DNA of 63,195 bases, filler included, from Basidioascus undulatus (Eukaryota): assembly GCA_000826855.1 (NCBI GenBank). It is 14 parts of 14 records of this genome, joined end to end, with 100 filler letters (N's around TTAATTAATTAA, not from the genome) between each part and the next. Parts side by side here need not be neighbours in the genome. Positions count along the whole stretch, not along the records: positions 48,177 to 51,103 come from JTLS01002587.1; 13 more parts are not named here. The stretch is one strand, 5' to 3'. A model generated the notes under the pieces. That model was given only the letters and a program-made list of their open reading frames with translations. It searched no databases and was not told the origin of the DNA. The position numbers and the translations under genes were made by a program. Positions 2,953 to 51,203 of this stretch are shown in pieces. The first letter of the stretch is position 1. Each line of letters starts with the position of its first letter.

Positions 2953-3052
2953 NNNNNNNNNNNNNNNNNNNNNNNNNNNNNNNNNNNNNNNNNNNNTTAA
3001 TTAATTAANNNNNNNNNNNNNNNNNNNNNNNNNNNNNNNNNNNNNNNNNNNN
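2953..3052. other. Artificial contig-joining spacer (N44-TTAATTAATTAA-N44), first of 13
   Basis: Identical 100-nt spacers with a six-frame-stop linker at 2953-3052, 26816-26915, 29868-29967, 32918-33017, 35967-36066, 38973-39072, 42010-42109, 45044-45143, 48077-48176, 51104-51203, 54129-54228, 57153-57252 and 60175-60274. Confidence 0.98.
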
Positions 3053-4449: not shown

Positions 4450-5585
4450 ATGGCCGCCCCCGCCCAGCTCTGCTGTCTCCCCGACGAGCTTTTCACACAA
4501 ATAATGTCCTTCTCCCCACTCAGTCCGACCTCGCCCGCCTCTCGCTCGTCTCGCGCCGCATCCAAGCCCTTACCGTCCCCCACCTCTTCCGCTCCGTCAC
4601 GCTCTCCTCGCACAGTCTACCTCTTCTCCTCCGCGCGCTGCACTCTCGTCTCCCGCTCGCCGCGCACGTCCGCTCCCTCTCCGTGGACTGGACCTCCTCC
4701 TACTTCGCGCCTGCCGCAGACGCAGAGCGCACCGCGCGCGTCGTAGCGCTGCTCGGGCTTCTCCCGAACCTCGCAGTCCTCCATGCCCGATAGCCCGAAG
4801 ACCCCGTGGGCGTTCTACCGCGCTCTTGATGCACCTCCCGCGGGGCTGGGGAAGCTCAGGGAACTCACACTGTATGGGGTTATGCCACGTCCGGGTTCGG
4901 GCTCGCTCAGCTGTTGCCGTGCTTTGCGCTGCCGTCGTTGCACACGCTCGCAGTCCACGGAGTGAGCCTGGAAGAGGAGCACGTGTACTCTGATGATCAT
5001 CTCGACTTCCCCTTCGCCCTCGCCAGGCTCCCCTCCCTCTGGGGCTCCTTCCCCATCACCTCCCTCGCGCTGACCTACTCGCCCGAGCCCGAGGACCCCT
5101 TCCTCCGCACAGCGCTCCTGCGCGTCCCCAAGGCCCTAGAGTCCTTCAGCCTCACCTTTTCCCCCGCCGTGTCGGACCTCCTCGCGCTCCTCCTCGCCGG
5201 CCTCGCAGACTCGCGAGACTCCACACTAACGCACTTGGCCCTCGCCGACCTCGACGAACCGGCCGGCGACCTCAGGGACTTCACGACCCTCCGCTCCCTC
5301 ACCATTTCCCTCTCCTTCCTCACCTCCGACCCCCTCCCTCCCCGGCTCTCCACACTCCGCATCGTCCCCGTCGGCGACCTCGCCCGTGGGCTGCCCCTTC
5401 TCCTCGACGTGCTGCAGAACAAGGCCGCGCTGGCGCCGAAGCTGGAGGAGCTCGTGGTGGAGCACTCGATCATGGCGGGCGCCTAGGGGCACGCGCTGAG
5501 GGCGCTTGGGGAGGCGTGCGAGGCGGCGGGGGTGCTGCTGCGGGTCGAGGAGGGGCGCTGGGCTGAGGGAGAGAATGAAGGAAGG
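4450..5585 (+). pseudogene. F-box/LRR-like protein pseudogene
   Basis: MAAPAQLCCLPDELFTQIMSF continues as LPTQSDLARLSLVSRRIQALTVPHLFRSVTL only after a 1-nt frameshift (~4512). Further shifts at ~4783 and ~4885. LRR-like segments LPSLHTLAV, LESFSL, LTHLAL, LRSLTI. In-frame TAG at 5484-5486, after which the reading continues (GHALRALGEACEAAGVLLRV). Confidence 0.8.
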
Positions 5586-6778
5586 TGCGTTGCGTTGGTC
5601 AGGACGGCGTCCCTCGGAAAAAACTGAAAAGCAACCAACCCTGGAGTCTGGCTCGGTTCTGTACTGCGCTCACTCGCGGATCCATCCTTCCACGTACCGG
5701 CGCGTTGTGCGGATACTGTACCGTCACGCAGCAGCAGCGATGCTGCGGTGGTTGAGCTGCCGTCCGACTTGACGGACGAAGCTGGACACCAATTTAGTGC
5801 ATTCCCTGTCTGGTCCTCATACCACTTTCCGGTCCTCCGCACCCGGCCTGGCAGAAGTGGAAGCGCGTGCATCGTTCGACAGTCCCTTCAGCACGTGCAG
5901 CGCGCAGTATTCAGCCTCTTCTTCCTCTTCCTCATCTTTACCTCAACCCGACCGCCTCTCAATACCGCTGAAAGCTCTCCGTCTGACCCCCAACCACCCT
6001 CTCCCAGCGCCAGCTTCACAGCTCTCAAAGTCCGCAAATTCATCTCCTCTACGATGCAGAACACCCCTCCAGCTCCAGCGCCCTTCTCCGCACCCTGACG
6101 CCCGCCTCCGTGCAAGCCTCTCTCAGCCTTGTTCCTCGAACCCCACCGTGCCCACCTGCTTCATCACAAGCTCCTCCAGCCCCGGCGGCCTACGGCTATG
6201 GGAGACAGCCTGGCGAGCGCCGTTTCGGAGGTCAAGCCCGGGCTAGTAATCCGGCGAGGTGCGTCGGTCTATGCTTGACAATTGAGACCTTGGCAGCTTA
6301 TATACAAGACTCTTAACAGCACCGGCGATGTATCGTGAGTGATTGCCGCGATACCGCCGGCGATGCGCCCGGGATGACGAACACACTGACCACTGCTTCT
6401 CAACCTACATGGCTGTTGATAACTTTGTAACGACACTGCGAGATATAGGCTTTCTTGATAGACGACGTTATCGCCTTGCTTCCTGTGTAAACACTGCGAG
6501 TGCTTGCTTGCATACGCTGCAAGTGCCGTTCTCCCCCGTCCCTCCTCTTCTTCAGTGTGTAATCAGGGACATACTCCAGAAACCATCTACTATCGATTGA
6601 ACCTGTGGTCTTTTATGATGTCAGAGACTTGCAGTCGGGCATTCAGACGACAAGTGCACGCAGTCGCCCAGTGTGCCGCCGGCATCCCCTTGCATCCCCC
6701 GGGCTTCCAAAGTTCAACTCACGCGCCGCCATGACATGCCCCCGACAACCTCCTCTTCCATGTTTTCCGACCATCACC

Positions 6779-11971: not shown

Positions 11972-14169
11972 ATGCACCGCCTGCTCGCTGGCGGGCTGCT
12001 CGCCCTCGCGGCGTACACTAACGCTCAAAATACGAAATTCATGTCCGAGGAGACGTTCTCGGAGTCGCTTACTATCCGACCGCTGGCCGATGGCAAGGTC
12101 GATGCCGCTTTCGAGTTCACTACACTCGTCCCTCACCTCTGTGCGCCATCTTTCGGAGCAGGGCGGTGTGCTTGGGCTAGTGAAGCTGACGCGGTGTTTC
12201 ATACACAGCTTCGCATCCGAAACTCCTTCCTTTGCCGCTCGTGCACCTTCTGCAGTCGGAGGAGATCGGCCTCGAGGAGCTGCACTTGAGCTTGGCGGCT
12301 GGGAGGTGGGACACGACCAGATGGGGCTACCCAATCATGGAGGGCGCGGGTGGGAGCGGCGCGGAGGTTTGGGCTTGGATGGCTAGCAATGAGTGAGTCC
12401 GTCTTCCCTTAGATCAGAGTTGTGAGGAAAGGGGCAGCGCTGGGGCAGGGAGCGGGCCGGAGCTGCTACTGCTCTTTCGAGCTACATCCCCATCCGTAGT
12501 CTCTCCGATTATATTGAAAGTATCCTGCACCCCGAATCACAGTACCGACACCGCCTGGACGAAGCTCACCAACTCCCTCGCCGGCCAATTCTGCGCCTCC
12601 CTCTCCGACCTCTCGCCGACCCTCACCATCTCCCCTCGATCCGTCTTCCGCCCGCACGGGCTCATCTACCCCCACTCGTCACCACTCCACGCGCAGCTTG
12701 TCTCCCAGCGCCCCTGCACCGAGAACATCACGCCGTTCATCGCGCTCCTGCCCTGCCGCTCGCGCGCCGGCCTGGCCAGGCTCCTCAACCCGCATCGCCT
12801 CTTTGATGGCGATTGGCATGGGATCCGGGTGGACGTAAGGCGGACGGAGGAGGGCGTGGAGGTTAAGCTGGCGGTGGAGGTCGTGCTTGATCCTGTTCGG
12901 GTGGGAGGAACGGGTAAACGAGGTGCGTTCCGCATGCTGCCTGAGTTGCGATGACCGCTGATCAGGAGGTCCTGGTGCAGACTACTCGCTCAACCGCCTC
13001 TTCGACCGGCCGATCGACCTCACGTGCCCGGTCGTATCGTCCTCCCAAGTTCACCTGGTCCTGCCCGAGGTTGACCCGACTAAGCCTGTCTCCTGGACGG
13101 TTCACCCTGCCGAGCGCCGGAACGCGACGGCCGAAGGTCGATGGGGTTCGGAGATCGCGTTCGACGTAGCGGACGGTACGTGACCTGCCGGGCTGTTGTT
13201 CAACAACTTCAGCTAATTTTCTAATGATGGGCGGCTACTGCAGTCGTTGGAAACAAGCTCGATCCTTCGCTGGAATGGCCTATTGAGTTCCGGTTCACCT
13301 ATCGTGCGTTGCGCTCATCCTCTTTTCTCATAGGCTCGCTCTAAAAATTCTCTTTCCCAGCGACCTCCTACCCCTCCGCGCCGCTTACCGTCACGCGGCA
13401 CCAAACGGGCGGCGCCTCGCAAGAGTCGTTCGGCCTCGACGTGGCGCTCACCAACGCGCTGGACGTCCCGCTCGAGGTGGTGTACTTCGAGAGTCTCCCG
13501 TGGCATGTGAAGGCTTGGCTGCATTCTGGGCGGGTTGAGGTGGATGGGGAAAGGCGGGGTGCGTCTCCTTCCTTTCTGCTTTTGGTCTGGTCCAGAGCAT
13601 TTGCGCTGACAAAAGCACTCGGAAGGACAGACGACCTTCTCTTATCTCTGCACCACACACCCCCGAAAGACCGCGCAACGCCCTCGCATCTCGAAGCTCG
13701 TCTCCTCCTTCCGCCGCGGACGACCGTCCACCTCTCGCACGAGTTCGCGCGCTCCTTCATTCGCTACACCGAGCACCCGCCCGACGCACACAGAGGGTTC
13801 GACCTCCCGCCGGGGATCGTCTTCCCGCGCTCTCCCCTCTTCGGACTTCCGAACCGCATCTATACCGTCCCCGGGCTCGTCGACCTCGCCACGCCCGATT
13901 TCAGCATGCCGTATAACGTCATCATCATGACGAGCACGCTTATCGCGCTGTTCTTTGGCAGCGTTTTCAACAACATGGTGCGCAGGTGGGTGAGGGTTGA
14001 CTTGAAGATGGGGAGGAGGGGAGCGGCTGCGGCGGAGATTGCCGTGGGTCCACAGGAGCGGGGCAAAGGGAAGGAGCAGGAGCGGGATAAGGTTGTTGAG
14101 CGCCGAGAGAAGCTTGATGGGGTGCAGGTAGTGGATGGGGAAGAGGCAGTGGTGAACCAGGAACGATGA
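11972..14169 (+). CDS. GPI16: GPI transamidase subunit Gpi16/PIG-T
   Basis: Signal peptide, then FSESLTIRPLADGKV, LHLSLAAGRWD, GAEVWAW, LTNSLAGQFCASL, RPCTENITPFIALLPC, LLNPHRLFDGDWH, YTEHPPDAHRGFDLP and LATPDFSMPYNVIIMTSTLIALFFGSVFN. Multi-exon and complete. Confidence 0.96.
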
Positions 14170-23211: not shown

Positions 23212-23961
23212 TCACTGCGTCCGTTTTGCCATGACCCATACAGTCCCACCCGTCTCATCCTTCGTCTTCCTAACCCACCCCTTCTTCAGCCTGAACCCCT
23301 TCCCGTCCACCACGCCCTGCAAGATCCTCTGCTCCCCCTTCACCTCAAACCCTTCCCTCTCGTACAACTTCCTTCCCCTATCCGTGGACGTATACAGATA
23401 CGCCGTCCTCCGGCCCTTCGCCTCCTGTACAATCTCAGCCAGCCCGTCTCGCACGAGCGTTCCGCCGATCCCCTTCCCTCCATGCCCGGGTGCGACAGCA
23501 AGCATCTGGAGGAACCAGGCGTCATGTACCGGGTCGAACGGGCACGAAGCTTTTGCGAGCGCGTCGATGGGGTCCTCGTACGCCATGACAATGCGGTGGA
23601 CCCCTGGGAACCCCCAACCTAGGAAGACCCTGCCGAAGCCGGCGCGATACAGCAAGAGCGGGGAGGAGAGCCGTTTTGAGGGCGGGAGCCACAGCGCGAT
23701 GCCGACGATCTGCTCGGGAGCTGAAGAGTCGGAAGAGACGACTGCGACTCGCACTCGTCCGCCGAGGAGTTTTACCCCCCGGATGATCGAGCGGTAGAAG
23801 TGCAGGCGGGTGGTGGGTTTGGTCGGTGAAGGGAGGAGAGGAGCGGGTGTGCGGGTGGCGTTGGCGAAGTAGTGATGGTCCCAGTTGTTGAGGAAGGCGT
23901 CGTGCAGGAGCCGCGCTAGGTAGTCGTGCTCGTCAAGGGTAGCGTCGCGTATGGTGACCAT
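23212..23961 (-). CDS. GNAT-family N-acetyltransferase (249 aa, intronless)
   Basis: MVTIRDAT..., IVGIALWLPP, WFLQMLAVAPGHGGKGIGGTLV (acetyl-CoA motif A) and YLYTSTDRGRKLYEREGF (motif B). Confidence 0.92.
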   Translation of the reverse strand: MVTIRDATLDEHDYLARLLHDAFLNNWDHHYFANATRTPAPLLPSPTKPTTRLHFYRSIIRGVKLLGGRVRVAVVSSDSSAPEQIVGIALWLPPSKRLSSPLLLYRAGFGRVFLGWGFPGVHRIVMAYEDPIDALAKASCPFDPVHDAWFLQMLAVAPGHGGKGIGGTLVRDGLAEIVQEAKGRRTAYLYTSTDRGRKLYEREGFEVKGEQRILQGVVDGKGFRLKKGWVRKTKDETGGTVWVMAKRTQ

Positions 23962-25054
23962 GATGCTGGAAGGAAGAAGACTGCAAGAAAGCAGAACGAT
24001 GCGTTAGTTTCCCGGAAGTAGCGGGCGCCAGCATACCCCTGTCAAGCCACGGCGCGCTTTGTGGCGTGATTTGTACGCACGTGAGAATTCGTTGAGATCC
24101 TAAGAAATTCTGAAATTTGGGCGACAGAGAAGACTCAGAGTATGGTGATTGAGCAAGAAAGGCGATGGCAAGTCAAGCGTGGCAATTTTTGAACTCAGCG
24201 AGGACAGGAGTTGTCAGGATCGGCAGGAGAGGTGGTGTGATGAAGAAAACCGAGGCCACACGGGCAACGTCCTGCAGGCGATACTTATCTCGCACAAAAG
24301 CTGTATTGACACACTGTGGGCTGGGACTTGAACACAACATCTCGCATTGAATAGTGGTGAGTAAATCTGTACCTCCTCGTGACACTATCCTCATCGTGAG
24401 CGCCGTGAGATGGCTGCACTCCGTTTGAGACCTCAGCGGGAAGAAGGTCCAAATTATGTGCTGCAGTGGTAATTCAACATATAGGGTGTCTTGCAACTGA
24501 ATATTGCGCATCACAGGTGCAGCAAGAGCACTGAATGTTGTGAAGAGCAAGTCACTGCAGCCAGCGAGTGAGCAAGGCATCCTGCGTGTCGGCAGGATCC
24601 CCCTGCGCCGAGATAACGGCAGCGGTTGAAAGTCCACAAAGGCACATACAGGTTTAATGCCTGTTATCTGGGATCAATGGTGCCGCCTAGTACAGATAGA
24701 TGTGTTGCAAGCGAATCCAGGACTTTGACAAGCCTGGATCTCGAAGACTGGCATGGGGCCTGAAGGTGCGCTGGCTATCATGTTCAAGTCATGATCTCGT
24801 GAGTAACCAGTCTATGGCTGCATTGTCTTCTTGTAAAAAACATCATGATGGTGTCAAAAATAATGGATCGACGAAGCGAAGCAGCCCGTCAACAGCCCCG
24901 GCTATTGGGGCCTCCTTTAGCAATGTGTCCCTCACATGTACCCTTCGAAGATATTTTGAAGTGTCTAAATCAATACCCCCATCAGTAAGTTGAGTGACTG
25001 TGTGAAAATTTTCACGAGGAACTGCACAGTCGCCTTGCAGTGCGTTTTGCGAAC

Positions 25055-26815: not shown

Positions 26816-26915
26816 NNNNNNNNNNNNNNNNNNNNNNNNNNNNNNNNNNNNNNNNNNNNTTAATTAATTAANNNNNNNNNNNNNNNNNNNNNNNNNNNNN
26901 NNNNNNNNNNNNNNN

Positions 26916-48076: not shown

Positions 48077-48176
48077 NNNNNNNNNNNNNNNNNNNNNNNN
48101 NNNNNNNNNNNNNNNNNNNNTTAATTAATTAANNNNNNNNNNNNNNNNNNNNNNNNNNNNNNNNNNNNNNNNNNNN

Positions 48177-48247
48177 AGTCAGATACTCTACCATTGAGCC
48201 AGCCGGCCTTGACCGACGCAGGGATCGAACCTGCAACCCCCTGATCT
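48177..48247 (-). tRNA. tRNA (probably Trp-CCA) with halves in permuted order: 3' half (48247/48245-48210), 1-nt spacer (48209), 5' half (48208-48177, cut by contig end at position 33)
   Basis: The minus strand reads AGA-TCAGG-GGGTT-GCAGG-TTCGATC-CCTGC-GTCGGTC-A, then A, then GGCCGGC-TG-GCTC-AATGGTA-GAGT-A-TCTGA-CT. Acceptor (GGCCGGC/GTCGGTC), D, anticodon (TCTGA/TCAGG) and T stems all pair. The TCTGACT..AGATCAG context and A73 resemble eukaryotic tRNA-Trp. The anticodon after the 5' half is not visible. Confidence 0.85.
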
Positions 48248-48499
48248 CGACTACCAACTGGGTAACTCCAGCGGTACAAAGAGGGCAAAGTTGATTTTAC
48301 ATATCCTAATCAATGCAAGAGGCCACAGTAATACTGTAGCTTCAAAGGACCAGAGGATCAAATCAAAGAAGCGCAGGCTGGTAAGCGGCAGCGGGTAGGC
48401 CATTGACTTGTATGTCACGGATGATGGAAATGGCATGGAGCAGTGATTTGCATGGAAGGCCGGACATCTACAACACGCCTCCAACAGGCTAGGTCCCGG

Positions 48500-48880
48500 C
48501 TCAACACAGGTCAACAAGAGAACCCTTCGAGACCGCTTGAACGATATCGGCGTGGTTGTCGATGATCTTGCTTAAGAACTGGTCGCCATTCACTCCATGC
48601 ACTGTTGGCAAGCATTCTCGTGACATTGAAAGCCCGGATGACTCACCTTGTCCGTGAATTCGCCGCTGTACCACGGAGTAAGACCCAGAGCCATCAACGA
48701 GGGCCTCGGGGGGTGCACGAGAGTGGATGAGCGTCCTTCTTCGGCAATGTAGCGCTCGACATCCGCCATGTGGCGTGCGATCTCCTCAACGAAGTCTTCA
48801 TCGCGAATGGCGATCACGTACCGTCCGGGTTCGAACGGGCGAGGGGCTTGAACATCCACGCGAGATTTGTCCGTGATGGC
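48500..48880 (-). pseudogene. Unidentified protein-like relic
   Basis: FEPGRYVIAIRDEDFVEEIARHMADVERYI...LGLTPWYSGEFTDK is followed by a GTGAGT donor. The downstream frame is inconsistent. Confidence 0.3.
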
Positions 48881-49252
48881 ACGAGGTGCGTGTGGAATGG
48901 GGTGAGGTGTGATGAGGGGAGGTCTTGGATGACAGAGGGGGGTTCGGGGGTGACGAAGCGCCTGAGTGGGAATCGGGACAAGAAGCGTGAAAGCATGCGG
49001 AGCAACCTCAGAGCTGCTGTGGATGAGGGGAGGGCAAAAGGTGGGACCACGTCTCGAGCTGCGCACTGGCGCTCAGTCATTATACCTGCGTACTTGCTGT
49101 GGGCGTGATGGCCACTTGTACGACGTGATTCAAGGCGGCTTTGGAGGCATGCAAGGCCTGCTGGTAGTCCTGACGAAAACGGTTGCGCTCGCGCCGTCTG
49201 AGCTTTCAGCAAGGTGGATCCTCAGTTACCTAGTCGTAAGTTGCCAGCCTCA

Positions 49253-49764
49253 CTATCTGGCTGGCGTTTGCTCCCTATACCCATCTTGAAAGTTAAAAGT
49301 TTTTCGACCGTGCTCTAGCTCGTGGAGATTCAGCTTTCCCATAGCCGAAAGAAGGCGCCTGGTAACTGTGATGTCACGTTCGAAACCCCGCCGATGCTGC
49401 GAGCTGCAGAAAAAGCCGCATTGCAAAGCCAACCGCCGAAGGGTCGGATGTGTAGCCACAGAACGTCGGAGAGAACGTCTTCGGCATACACAAGTCCTCC
49501 GGTCACGATATGAAACATCGCAAGTGATTCGAGGTAACGGAAGTGGAACGTCGACTTTTGGAGAGCCCGCAGTTGGGGGTAGGTGCGGATGAAACGAGTG
49601 CGATTTAGGTGGGGCGCAACAAGTTCAGAGACACCGCGCGAGACCGAGCGAAGGGTAACGTTCATTTCGCGGTCCCATGCGGATCCATACCCAAGCAGGT
49701 TTGAAGGCACTGCGATAAAGTTGATAATGCGGGCGACAACGTCGAAAGGAACGGGGACAGGCAT
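49253..49764 (-). pseudogene. F-box(-LRR) protein pseudogene
   Basis: MPVPVPFDVVARIINFI...TLRSVSRGVSELVAPHLNRTRFI...YLESLAM, then a frameshift (~49460) to ATHPTLRRLALQ, then stops. Confidence 0.6.
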
Positions 49765-50699
49765 TGCCGGAATGAGCGTGGACGACTGTGTTATTGGCCT
49801 TCGAAAGTAGTAGGGTTTGAAACAAACAGAACCTGGATGTGGGTGAAGTTGCGGAGGGGAAAGAAAGATGCACAAACCTCAGAGGTGGAAGGCCAGCCCG
49901 GATGAGGAGGCCGATGTGCAGCGGGCATGTGACATGAAGTGCGGAATCAGAACAGAGCACGGTTCCAAGTAGGTTCACCGTAGGCGTCAAAGACGCGCGA
50001 GAGAGCGGCTGGTTCAACCTGAGATTGGGTGAAACAACAGAACACAGTGCGCACCGCACACTGCACGAGAGAGCATTGGTCGCTGGGGGGGAGAGCATCG
50101 TTGGCTGTCTTACAATGAGCATAGCCAGCGTCACATTTTGACTCTGTGAACTTTTCCATTGGCCGATTGAAGAGTGGCGGGACCAGATTGCAGCGGCGTC
50201 AACTGGCGCATGCAAACGGACTGGAGCGCGGGATCAAGGGAATGTTTGTTCCCTTCTCGTTCCCCCCTCTTCGTGAAAATACAAGATGTGAATCGATTTT
50301 AACTACAAATTGGTGTACTCCTCGAAGTCAATGGTCTGAGAGACCCCCATCGATATGAGCAAGGTAACTGAAGTAAGACATGTTCCTTGGCTGTAATCCA
50401 GGACAAGGCGGTGATGTGCGACTGCTTTTTAGTTCATTCCGACGGCATGTCCCCTGGATACTAATGAACACACCAGATTGGCGGGTAACTTATTGACGTG
50501 TCCAACCGGGCAAGGAAAGAAGCAGCTCAAAGGAGCAGAGAAGGAATCGCAGAAAAGCGCGGGGAGAGTGGCGAGGAACCTGTAAGTCTGATCCTTCCAG
50601 CCTGTTTGATAAAAGGACTCACAAAAAAACCCCAATTTACCAGACGGAATGTTTTGGTAGAATCTTTTCGAAAGATCGCGCGTTCTTCAGGCACGAGTA

Positions 50700-50990
50700 G
50701 GAATGCTTCGTGCTTGGTGTGCTGGACGAAGGCTTGGCTGTCCCCCCTGGTACGTCTGCTTTGCCTTGCTGAGGGAACATGGCATCCCAAACACTATGTT
50801 TTCTGTAGCTTGTTATCATATGTAGCTACTCAAAGCAGGAATCCTGCGCTATCAGCTGCATTCTGGAATGCTGAACAGATGTCAGTGTCAAAGTCGAAGA
50901 TGGCACCCTTCTTGAGGAGGCGAGTGTGGGGAAGGATGGTGTGCGAGTACCCTTACGCGGCGGTAGAAGTTTGCAAAGCCAAGGAAGGTG
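50700..50990 (-). mobile_element. Degenerate Ty3/gypsy pol fragment (RT-RNase H connection)
   Basis: FLGFANFYRR (50958-50986), then a frameshift to LTRLLKKGAIFDFD (~50890-50927). The gypsy pattern is FLGFxNFYRRFI...LTxLLKKxxxFxW. Stops follow downstream. Confidence 0.75.
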
Positions 50991-51203
50991 TCATGAATAC
51001 CCTCCCTCCCTTCACCAAGGACATCTACACCCTTTGTCACCTTCCTTTGTCCTATCGTCCTCATGTCCACCTCCTTGCCTTCCTTTGTCCTATTGTCCTC
51101 CTGNNNNNNNNNNNNNNNNNNNNNNNNNNNNNNNNNNNNNNNNNNNNTTAATTAATTAANNNNNNNNNNNNNNNNNNNNNNNNNNNNNNNNNNNNNNNNN
51201 NNN

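Follow-up and report, generated by a model that had tools for sequence, protein, structure and literature searches.

Circularly permuted tRNA genes carry the 3' half of a tRNA upstream of the 5' half on one strand, and have been described in Cyanidioschyzon merolae, prasinophyte algae, the Bigelowiella nucleomorph and Thermofilum pendens (PMC3978253; this and the other articles are cited here from extracts). Tandem duplication is the standard model for their origin, and both DNA duplication and reverse transcription are discussed as sources in the same review. Among fungi, tRNA-derived SINEs such as Mg-SINE and AfuSINE2 are known in filamentous species (PMC5063351), and tRNA-5S genes in Yarrowia (PMC2566860). 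Helenus TRIMs, described in Pucciniales and some Agaricomycetes and not in Ascomycota, feature a tRNA-like sequence multiplied by a mobile element (PMC10886601). The bacterial Y RNA YrlA (Rfam RF02553) includes a permuted tRNA-like domain.

A locus found at the end of a contig of Basidioascus undulatus shares features with all of them. As in permuted tRNA genes, the two halves lie in swapped order on one strand, the break would fall between positions 37 and 38, as in the commonest green-algal type, and the intervening sequence is very short, as in T. pendens tRNA-Tyr, where it measures 1 nt (PMC3978253). Permuted tRNA genes occur as one gene per tRNA, whereas the locus described here is present in tens of variant copies, features no CCA beside the 1-nt spacer, belongs to a fungal lineage, and is known from its halves and their junction, up to position 33. 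With Mg-SINE and AfuSINE2 it shares a dispersed, multi-copy state, and an A-like box followed by a B box in the upstream unit (unit 1); it differs from these elements, as extracted from PMC5063351, in that neither a body nor a tail nor a target-site duplication was seen, one base separates it from a second tRNA 5' half, and conservation is much lower in the 5' part than in the core. The Yarrowia tRNA-5S genes (PMC2566860) are likewise made by two Pol III-type units set head to tail with a very short spacer, but here unit 1 is no valid tRNA, and copy number is high. YrlA has the same order of T arm, acceptor-like stem and D arm; in contrast, the match found here is below the gathering score of 69, the host is eukaryotic, and there is no Ro60 context. 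The YrlA match reflects the swapped order of the arms only, and denotes no Y RNA.

Two types of LTR-related sequences were considered and discarded. The tRNA-like sequences of Helenus TRIMs are in normal order and reside inside LTRs (PMC10886601, extract); here the order differs, and no LTR, primer-binding site or polypurine tract was seen. A primer-binding site of an LTR element was rejected because no CCA complement adjoins the complement of the tRNA 3' end. The locus is best read as the terminal part of a single copy of a tRNA-Trp-derived repeat that is dispersed, multi-copy, and made by two head-to-tail tRNA-like units one base apart, a reading to which we assign a probability of about 0.58.

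Organization of the locus

The window, i.e. the whole stretch of 63195 nt that was analyzed, is made of 14 unplaced contigs, chained by a linker, N44-TTAATTAATTAA-N44, which occurs 13 times in identical form. All the contigs but two measure ~2.9 kb, and these 12 are ordered from the largest to the smallest. Many contig ends in the window consist of homopolymer or purine-rich runs, and features that seem to cross 2953-3052, 26816-26915 and the other linkers are artificial. The tRNA-like feature corresponds to the final 69 bases of the contig spanning 48177-51103 (2927 nt, 53% G+C). In minus-strand order, this contig features unique sequence, a leader ending in TTGGTAG TCGAG, the 3' half, one A, the 5' half, and the contig end. 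Features are listed in Table 1. The first-pass annotation had placed a contig break at position 33, and the break is indeed there, but what follows is the artificial linker between two unplaced contigs. The stop at position 33 is thus a contig end plus an artificial join, and marks no biological boundary, nor does it carry information on the anticodon. A contig end at 48177 is the product expected from an assembler entering a repeat from a unique flank.

Table 1. Coordinates of the features at the contig end
Feature	Position	Strand	Basis and remarks
Artificial linker N44-TTAATTAATTAA-N44	48077..48176	.	unites two unrelated contigs; 1 of 13 identical
tRNA-Trp-like 5' half, positions 1-33: acceptor 5' strand, D arm with A box, anticodon-stem 5' strand, C32, U33	48177..48208	-	cut by the contig end; Rfam tRNA model and stem check
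One A separating A73 from G1 (spacer or intervening base)	48209	-	sequence; spanned by a 56-nt read-derived contig
tRNA-Trp-like 3' half, positions 38-73: anticodon-stem 3' strand, variable loop, T arm with B box, acceptor 3' strand, A73	48210..48245	-	sequence and stem pairing
Conserved leader (T)GGTAGTCGAG	48246..48256	-	directly upstream of the 3' half; common to nearly all copies
Putative degenerate 67-nt tRNA-like unit 1	48210..48276	-	called by ARAGORN at -ps80 only

The order of the two halves, and the single base between them, are as first annotated. The 5' half measures 32 nt, position 17 being absent. The halves complete each other's stems, as had been claimed: 7/7 pairs form across them in the acceptor stem (2 are G-U) and 5/5 in the anticodon stem (1 is G-U), and pairing is complete also in the D stem within the 5' half (4/4) and in the T stem within the 3' half (5/5). 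The chance of finding the 12 inter-half pairs at fixed positions is, by our own arithmetic, ~0.375^12, or ~8e-6. The halves were put in normal order by a script, and positions 34-37, which lie beyond the contig end, were filled by four N. The rearranged sequence adopted a cloverleaf-like fold in ViennaRNA, with the T stem extended into the variable region, and was called as a 72-nt tRNA by ARAGORN. In the whole window as it stands no tRNA was called by ARAGORN at default settings, and no family was matched in Rfam at gathering scores. In permissive Rfam searches of the contig 48177-51103, positions 1-32 of the tRNA model matched the 5' half (17.8 bits; gathering score 29), and YrlA matched 48177-48264 on the minus strand (31 bits; gathering score 69; E 4.6e-4). 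No further copy of either half, and no other tRNA-like copy, was found elsewhere in the window. The anticodon being outside the window, the tRNA is presumed to be a tRNA-Trp by comparison with the tRNA-Trp sequences of yeast and human.

Two negative statements of the first-pass annotation were borne out: there is no oligo-T after A73, and no intact 5' half ahead of the 3' half, since the 40-100 nt upstream, when aligned to the 5' half, score at chance. Of the 73 nt that it assigned to one period (48249-48177), the four bases 48249-48246 are part of the leader rather than of the tRNA.

With a 3' half upstream of a 5' half on the same strand, and the acceptor ends joined by a short intervening sequence, the locus has the organization of a permuted tRNA gene, and the order of the halves and all the stems would suit a family of working circularly permuted tRNA-Trp(CCA) genes broken at 37/38. 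The transcript of such a gene would include leader, 3' half, A, 5' half and trailer; leader and trailer would be removed by the tRNA splicing endonuclease, a ligase would close a 73-nt circle, RNase P and a 3' nuclease would open the acceptor end, and CCA would be added. An intervening sequence of 1 nt and the 37/38 type are both on record (PMC3978253, extract). We regard such a gene family as quite unlikely. Anticodon, trailer and terminator lie beyond the contig end and, as CCA is not encoded, the acceptor hairpin would close on a 2-nt loop, which may be awkward for RNase P. The first-pass annotation knew of no permuted tRNA in fungi, and no fungal case is reported in the extracts of the literature on permuted tRNA genes.

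The junction in sequencing reads

Three sequencing runs, none of them listed as RNA, were found to contain the stretch, and were analyzed. X1 and X2 are DNA runs from two studies (2014 and 2025); all sampled words were present in both, and the assembly may have been built from them. The third run, X3, shares its sample with X2, and is labelled "DNA?". X3 covers only parts of the gene next to the locus, and exhibits there two joints with CT..AC ends, which correspond to GT..AG on the minus strand; X3 is therefore taken as RNA-derived. Contigs derived from the reads were aligned to 48177-49400, giving 90 rows for 87 records, 24 of the 90 being listed, with loose ends of 30 letters; matches of only 30 nt may be missing from this alignment.

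A read-derived contig of 56 nt spans the junction (48184-48239) with 0 differences, at a depth of 175.4 in X1 and 472.7 in X2. The unique contig of the locus has a depth of 18.8 and 51.1, respectively, and stops at 48229, 30 bases into the shared sequence. The exact junction is therefore found at ~9 times the single-copy depth in either run. A junction variant with one difference reaches a depth of 298.3 in X1 (~16 copies) and 650 in X2 (~13 copies), and the 3' half-A-5' half junction is accordingly present in both runs at ~22-25 copies or more per genome. One X3 contig also spans it. Read-derived contigs across GGTCA-A-GGCCGG, the lack of which the first-pass annotation had taken as fatal to its own proposal, are thus found in two DNA runs from two studies.

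The junction is real, and not an assembly error, because contigs derived from the reads of X1 and X2 span it with 0 differences. A chimeric contig end, with no real junction, might be suspected from the position of the feature at the very end of a small unplaced contig, and from the arrest of the unique read-derived contig at 48229, so that the last 52 bases of this copy are those of the original assembler. Contigs crossing the junction in X1 and X2, and the X3 contig as well, reduce the probability of such an artefact almost to nil.

Copies, flanks and leader

Summed depth over the tRNA-like part ranges from 1814 to 2965 in X1 and from 5515 to 6627 in X2, which corresponds to ~100-150 copies. 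In both runs the bin of the 3' half is deeper than that of the 5' half (2965 vs 1814 in X1; 6627 vs 5515 in X2). Contigs leave the reference at 48240-48260 to enter different flanks (11 listed in X1, 10 in X2), and the copies, being multiple and differently flanked, are therefore dispersed. Among these loose ends, one per run is at 48240, and the remainder at 48252-48260. Single-copy variants differ from the reference at 5/72, 4/57, 2/40 and 3/43 positions, and contig ends fall at stem positions 12, 24, 27, 43 and 65. A repeat with young and old members would suit these data better than a family of tRNA genes, because copy number is high, variants carry 2-5 differences each, and contigs end at variable stem positions. 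Yeast has six tRNA-Trp genes (PMC4090602, extract). Tens of copies with stem variants are far above the need for a tRNA-Trp family, and weigh against working permuted genes.

A further reading bears on the deeper coverage of the 3' half. Two 3' halves for each 5' half would be expected if the downstream unit (unit 2) were a complete working tRNA-Trp gene, preceded by a conserved cis element or a co-transcribed pseudo-tRNA, and duplicated with it as a block; the dimeric Pol III unit would be split by RNase Z and RNase P. In favor of this reading, the 5' half has no flaw as far as the contig end. Tandem Pol III genes, tRNA-tRNA pairs included, are found in yeasts. A family of tRNA-Trp genes would not reach so high a copy number, and this lowers the standing of an ordinary unit 2, which we retain as a tentative alternative of rather low probability. 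Tandem or dicistronic Pol III genes are documented in yeasts also by the tRNA-5S genes (PMC2566860, extract).

The course of the contigs around the two halves bears on all these readings. In none of the 21 listed departing contigs (11 of 12 in X1, 10/10 in X2) does another sequence take the place of A and the 5' half behind the 3' half; all 21 leave the reference upstream of the 3' half, and none has the 5' half preceded otherwise. The row count indicates that no DNA-run contig maps in two pieces, the 3 surplus rows being all from X3. Long single-copy contigs carrying the junction and the 5' half (4220, 3014 and 18542 nt) hence have no second 3' half at a likeness of at least 90%. A complete unit 2 requires two-piece contigs. 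Moreover, single-copy contigs run 3-4 kb past the 5' half unbroken, and an identical 3' half would probably break them at k = 31. The same data speak against a repeat of two units, both because no two-piece DNA contig was found and the long contigs lack a second 3' half, and because all the listed contigs depart upstream of the 3' half; a permuted gene, which has no second 3' half behind its 5' half, would fit them at least as well.

A ten-base leader is common to nearly all the copies. The pentanucleotide TTGGT (48258-48254), which extends two bases beyond the leader span, can pair with ATCAG of the 3' half, as in the hairpin drawn by ARAGORN; in this fold the leader pairs with the 3' half. 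Contigs that are ~97% alike over the 3' half diverge a few bases upstream, and conservation drops sharply at the leader. A pseudogene decaying uniformly would behave differently, and this is a point against the repeat; a real and recurrent junction with a conserved 10-nt leader and sharply diverging flanks would be in keeping with permuted genes. Eukaryotic tRNA splicing endonucleases use an anticodon-intron pair, and the G at -3 of the 3' half could form such a pair with C32. The anticodon-intron pair is named in PMC4090602 (extract). The hypothesis that the leader is the remnant of an intron pairing with the anticodon loop was discarded, as only one other copy besides this one has CTGGAG upstream.

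When compared by eye, several copies resemble one another in their 30-nt upstream flanks, in which a CACC(A/G)C block recurs together with a GTAAGC-like one. This resemblance, which extends to the locus analyzed here, suggests that the copies descend from one composite ancestor.

Sequences from the locus were searched for also in other data sets. In the metagenome scan the 27-nt junction gave 0 matches. A 24-nt word from the variable loop and T arm was found at at least 120 loci, none of the 120 listed having this acceptor end or the junction; the loci inspected are normal-order tRNAs (with Arg-, Trp- and Asn-like anticodon loops, as judged by eye) or tRNA-like contexts. A 22-mer from the junction and a 23-mer from the 5' half had 0 matches in prokaryote genome contigs and viral contigs. 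Protein searches for spurious ORFs across other copies, meant to read past position 33, gave nothing, and the exhaustive protein search returned 2 matches, both to unrelated repeat proteins.

The upstream unit and the X3 closed path

At the relaxed threshold only (-ps80), ARAGORN predicts that a degenerate tRNA-like unit precedes the junction, at 48276-48210; at -ps90, -ps95 and default settings this unit is not called. In the predicted fold, unit 1 features an acceptor stem with 5/7 pairs, a weak D arm, an intact T arm, and an anticodon-like loop, AGTCGAG, with G at position 33; the hairpin TTGGT-AGTCGAG-ATCAG takes the place of the anticodon arm. The leader is the sum of GGTAG, the end of a D loop, and TCGAG, which is alike at 4/5 bases to the expected positions 33-37 of tRNA-Trp. 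When the upstream 40-100 nt were aligned locally to the 5' half, 1393-1561 of 2000 shuffles equalled the score, and only TGGTAG is common to the two sequences. The composition of the leader, and the folding of unit 1 as a degenerate tRNA, favor the repeat; the upstream stretch is however not significantly similar to the 5' half, and the call of unit 1 at the loosest ARAGORN setting is a point on the opposite side.

An AT-rich patch, TATGTAAAAT, is found at 48294-48303 (minus strand). It precedes the 3' half by ~50 nt and the putative start of unit 1 by ~20 nt, at the place expected for a TATA-like upstream element of Pol III. The patch would be in keeping with a permuted gene.

Six X3 contigs were analyzed. 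One of 93 nt corresponds to a closed path of 63 nt plus 30 (k = 31), its first and last 30 bases mapping to one place. On the reference the path covers 48188-48250, and includes positions 1-22 of the 5' half, TCGAG, the 3' half and A, positions 23-32 being absent; it amounts to the 73-nt tRNA-plus-one unit minus 10 nt. The path is found in X3 only, as the DNA runs have no two-piece contig, and could come from a tandem in the genome, from a small circular RNA, or from a template switch at the repeated TGGTAG. A tandem of 73-nt units in register was discarded, as the match in register is poor upstream of TCGAG, and a 10-nt deletion fits better. The 63-nt path is the only closed one among the 6 X3 contigs, in which neither a 73-nt path nor a 37/38 joint was found; these contigs represent one run, and small RNAs are poorly sampled in it. 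A further X3 contig, the only one to cross the contig end, carries the junction and ends 4 nt beyond, exactly after position 37. An arrest at this position would be in keeping with a permuted gene broken at 37/38; against such a gene, the sole closed path of X3 measures 63 nt, lacks positions 23-37, and no 37/38 joint is present in the 6 contigs.

The first-pass annotation had left the choice between a permuted Pol III gene and a head-to-tail duplication or concatemer. The latter fits better with the ~22-25 copies, the stem variants, the upstream unit and the 63-nt path, and the former less so.

A probable dispersed repeat derived from tRNA-Trp

In the repeat, unit 1 (48276-48210) would have a decayed 5' part, and a short hairpin replacing the full anticodon arm, but would have kept a near-perfect tRNA-Trp 3' half. 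Unit 2 would start at 48208, its intact 5' half being interrupted at position 33 because the assembler failed on the repeat. The permuted look would arise where unit 1 ends in its 3' half and unit 2 opens with its 5' half, and the swapped halves would yield no working tRNA. The pair may go back to intron-less tRNA-Trp units (72 nt + 1) concatenated head to tail, either through duplication of DNA or through a circularised or concatemeric RNA that was reverse-transcribed. Unit 1 would have lost positions 23-32 at a later stage, and the composite may have spread as one unit, in a SINE-like fashion. In unit 1 the leader, which is A-box-like, is followed by the B box, an order that would suit RNA polymerase III. 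The tRNA-like core may be kept alike among copies by recent spread or by gene conversion; intergenic conversion among tRNA gene copies is documented (PMC4090602, extract), and could operate on the core of the repeat.

The contig break is not biological, the junction is found in reads at ~9 plus 13-16 times the single-copy depth, and the copies are dispersed; these data, along with the 63-nt path of X3, argue for the repeat. Points against it come, besides those given above, from the SINE hallmarks: no tail, target-site duplication or body was seen, the 3' end of the element being beyond the contig.

Neighbouring genes

A gene is found next to the tRNA-like element at 48433-48977 on the minus strand. 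X3 contigs feature in it the two GT..AG joints, at 48579-48646 (68 nt) and 48704-48820 (117 nt); the latter is retained in another X3 contig. The 160 nt between this gene and the element are not covered by X3. No family was found in a Pfam search of 5 ORFs of the contig 48177-51103. The 23.8-kb contig of the window carries at 13345-14169 (plus strand) an exon of Gpi16/PIG-T, and at 23212-24003 (minus strand) a GNAT acetyltransferase (Pfam PF13508, E 1.1e-7). The protein clusters matched by the Gpi16 ORF are 100% Eukaryota, most commonly Ascomycota, which supports a host that is eukaryotic and probably an ascomycete, and the assignment of the host to fungi in the first-pass annotation is plausible.

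Significance

There is a small probability that the genome belongs to a fungus with a family of permuted tRNA-Trp genes. With their break at 37/38 and one intervening base, these genes would be transcribed from what is left of an upstream duplicate, would mature through a circular RNA, and would perhaps be the sole source of tRNA-Trp in the cell. If so, no case of a permuted tRNA would precede this one outside algae and archaea, and the organism would be one with a standard TFIIIC-type Pol III system. If the halves are used, permuted tRNA genes would extend to fungi, an origin by recent tandem duplication would have been caught in the act, and a genetically tractable system for the processing of circular pre-tRNAs would be at hand. 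If the locus is a copy of the dispersed repeat, as we favor, contig ends inside tRNA-derived repeats can mimic permuted genes, and the genome would host an unusual fungal repeat, the conserved core of which is a tRNA 3' half set one base ahead of a 5' half.
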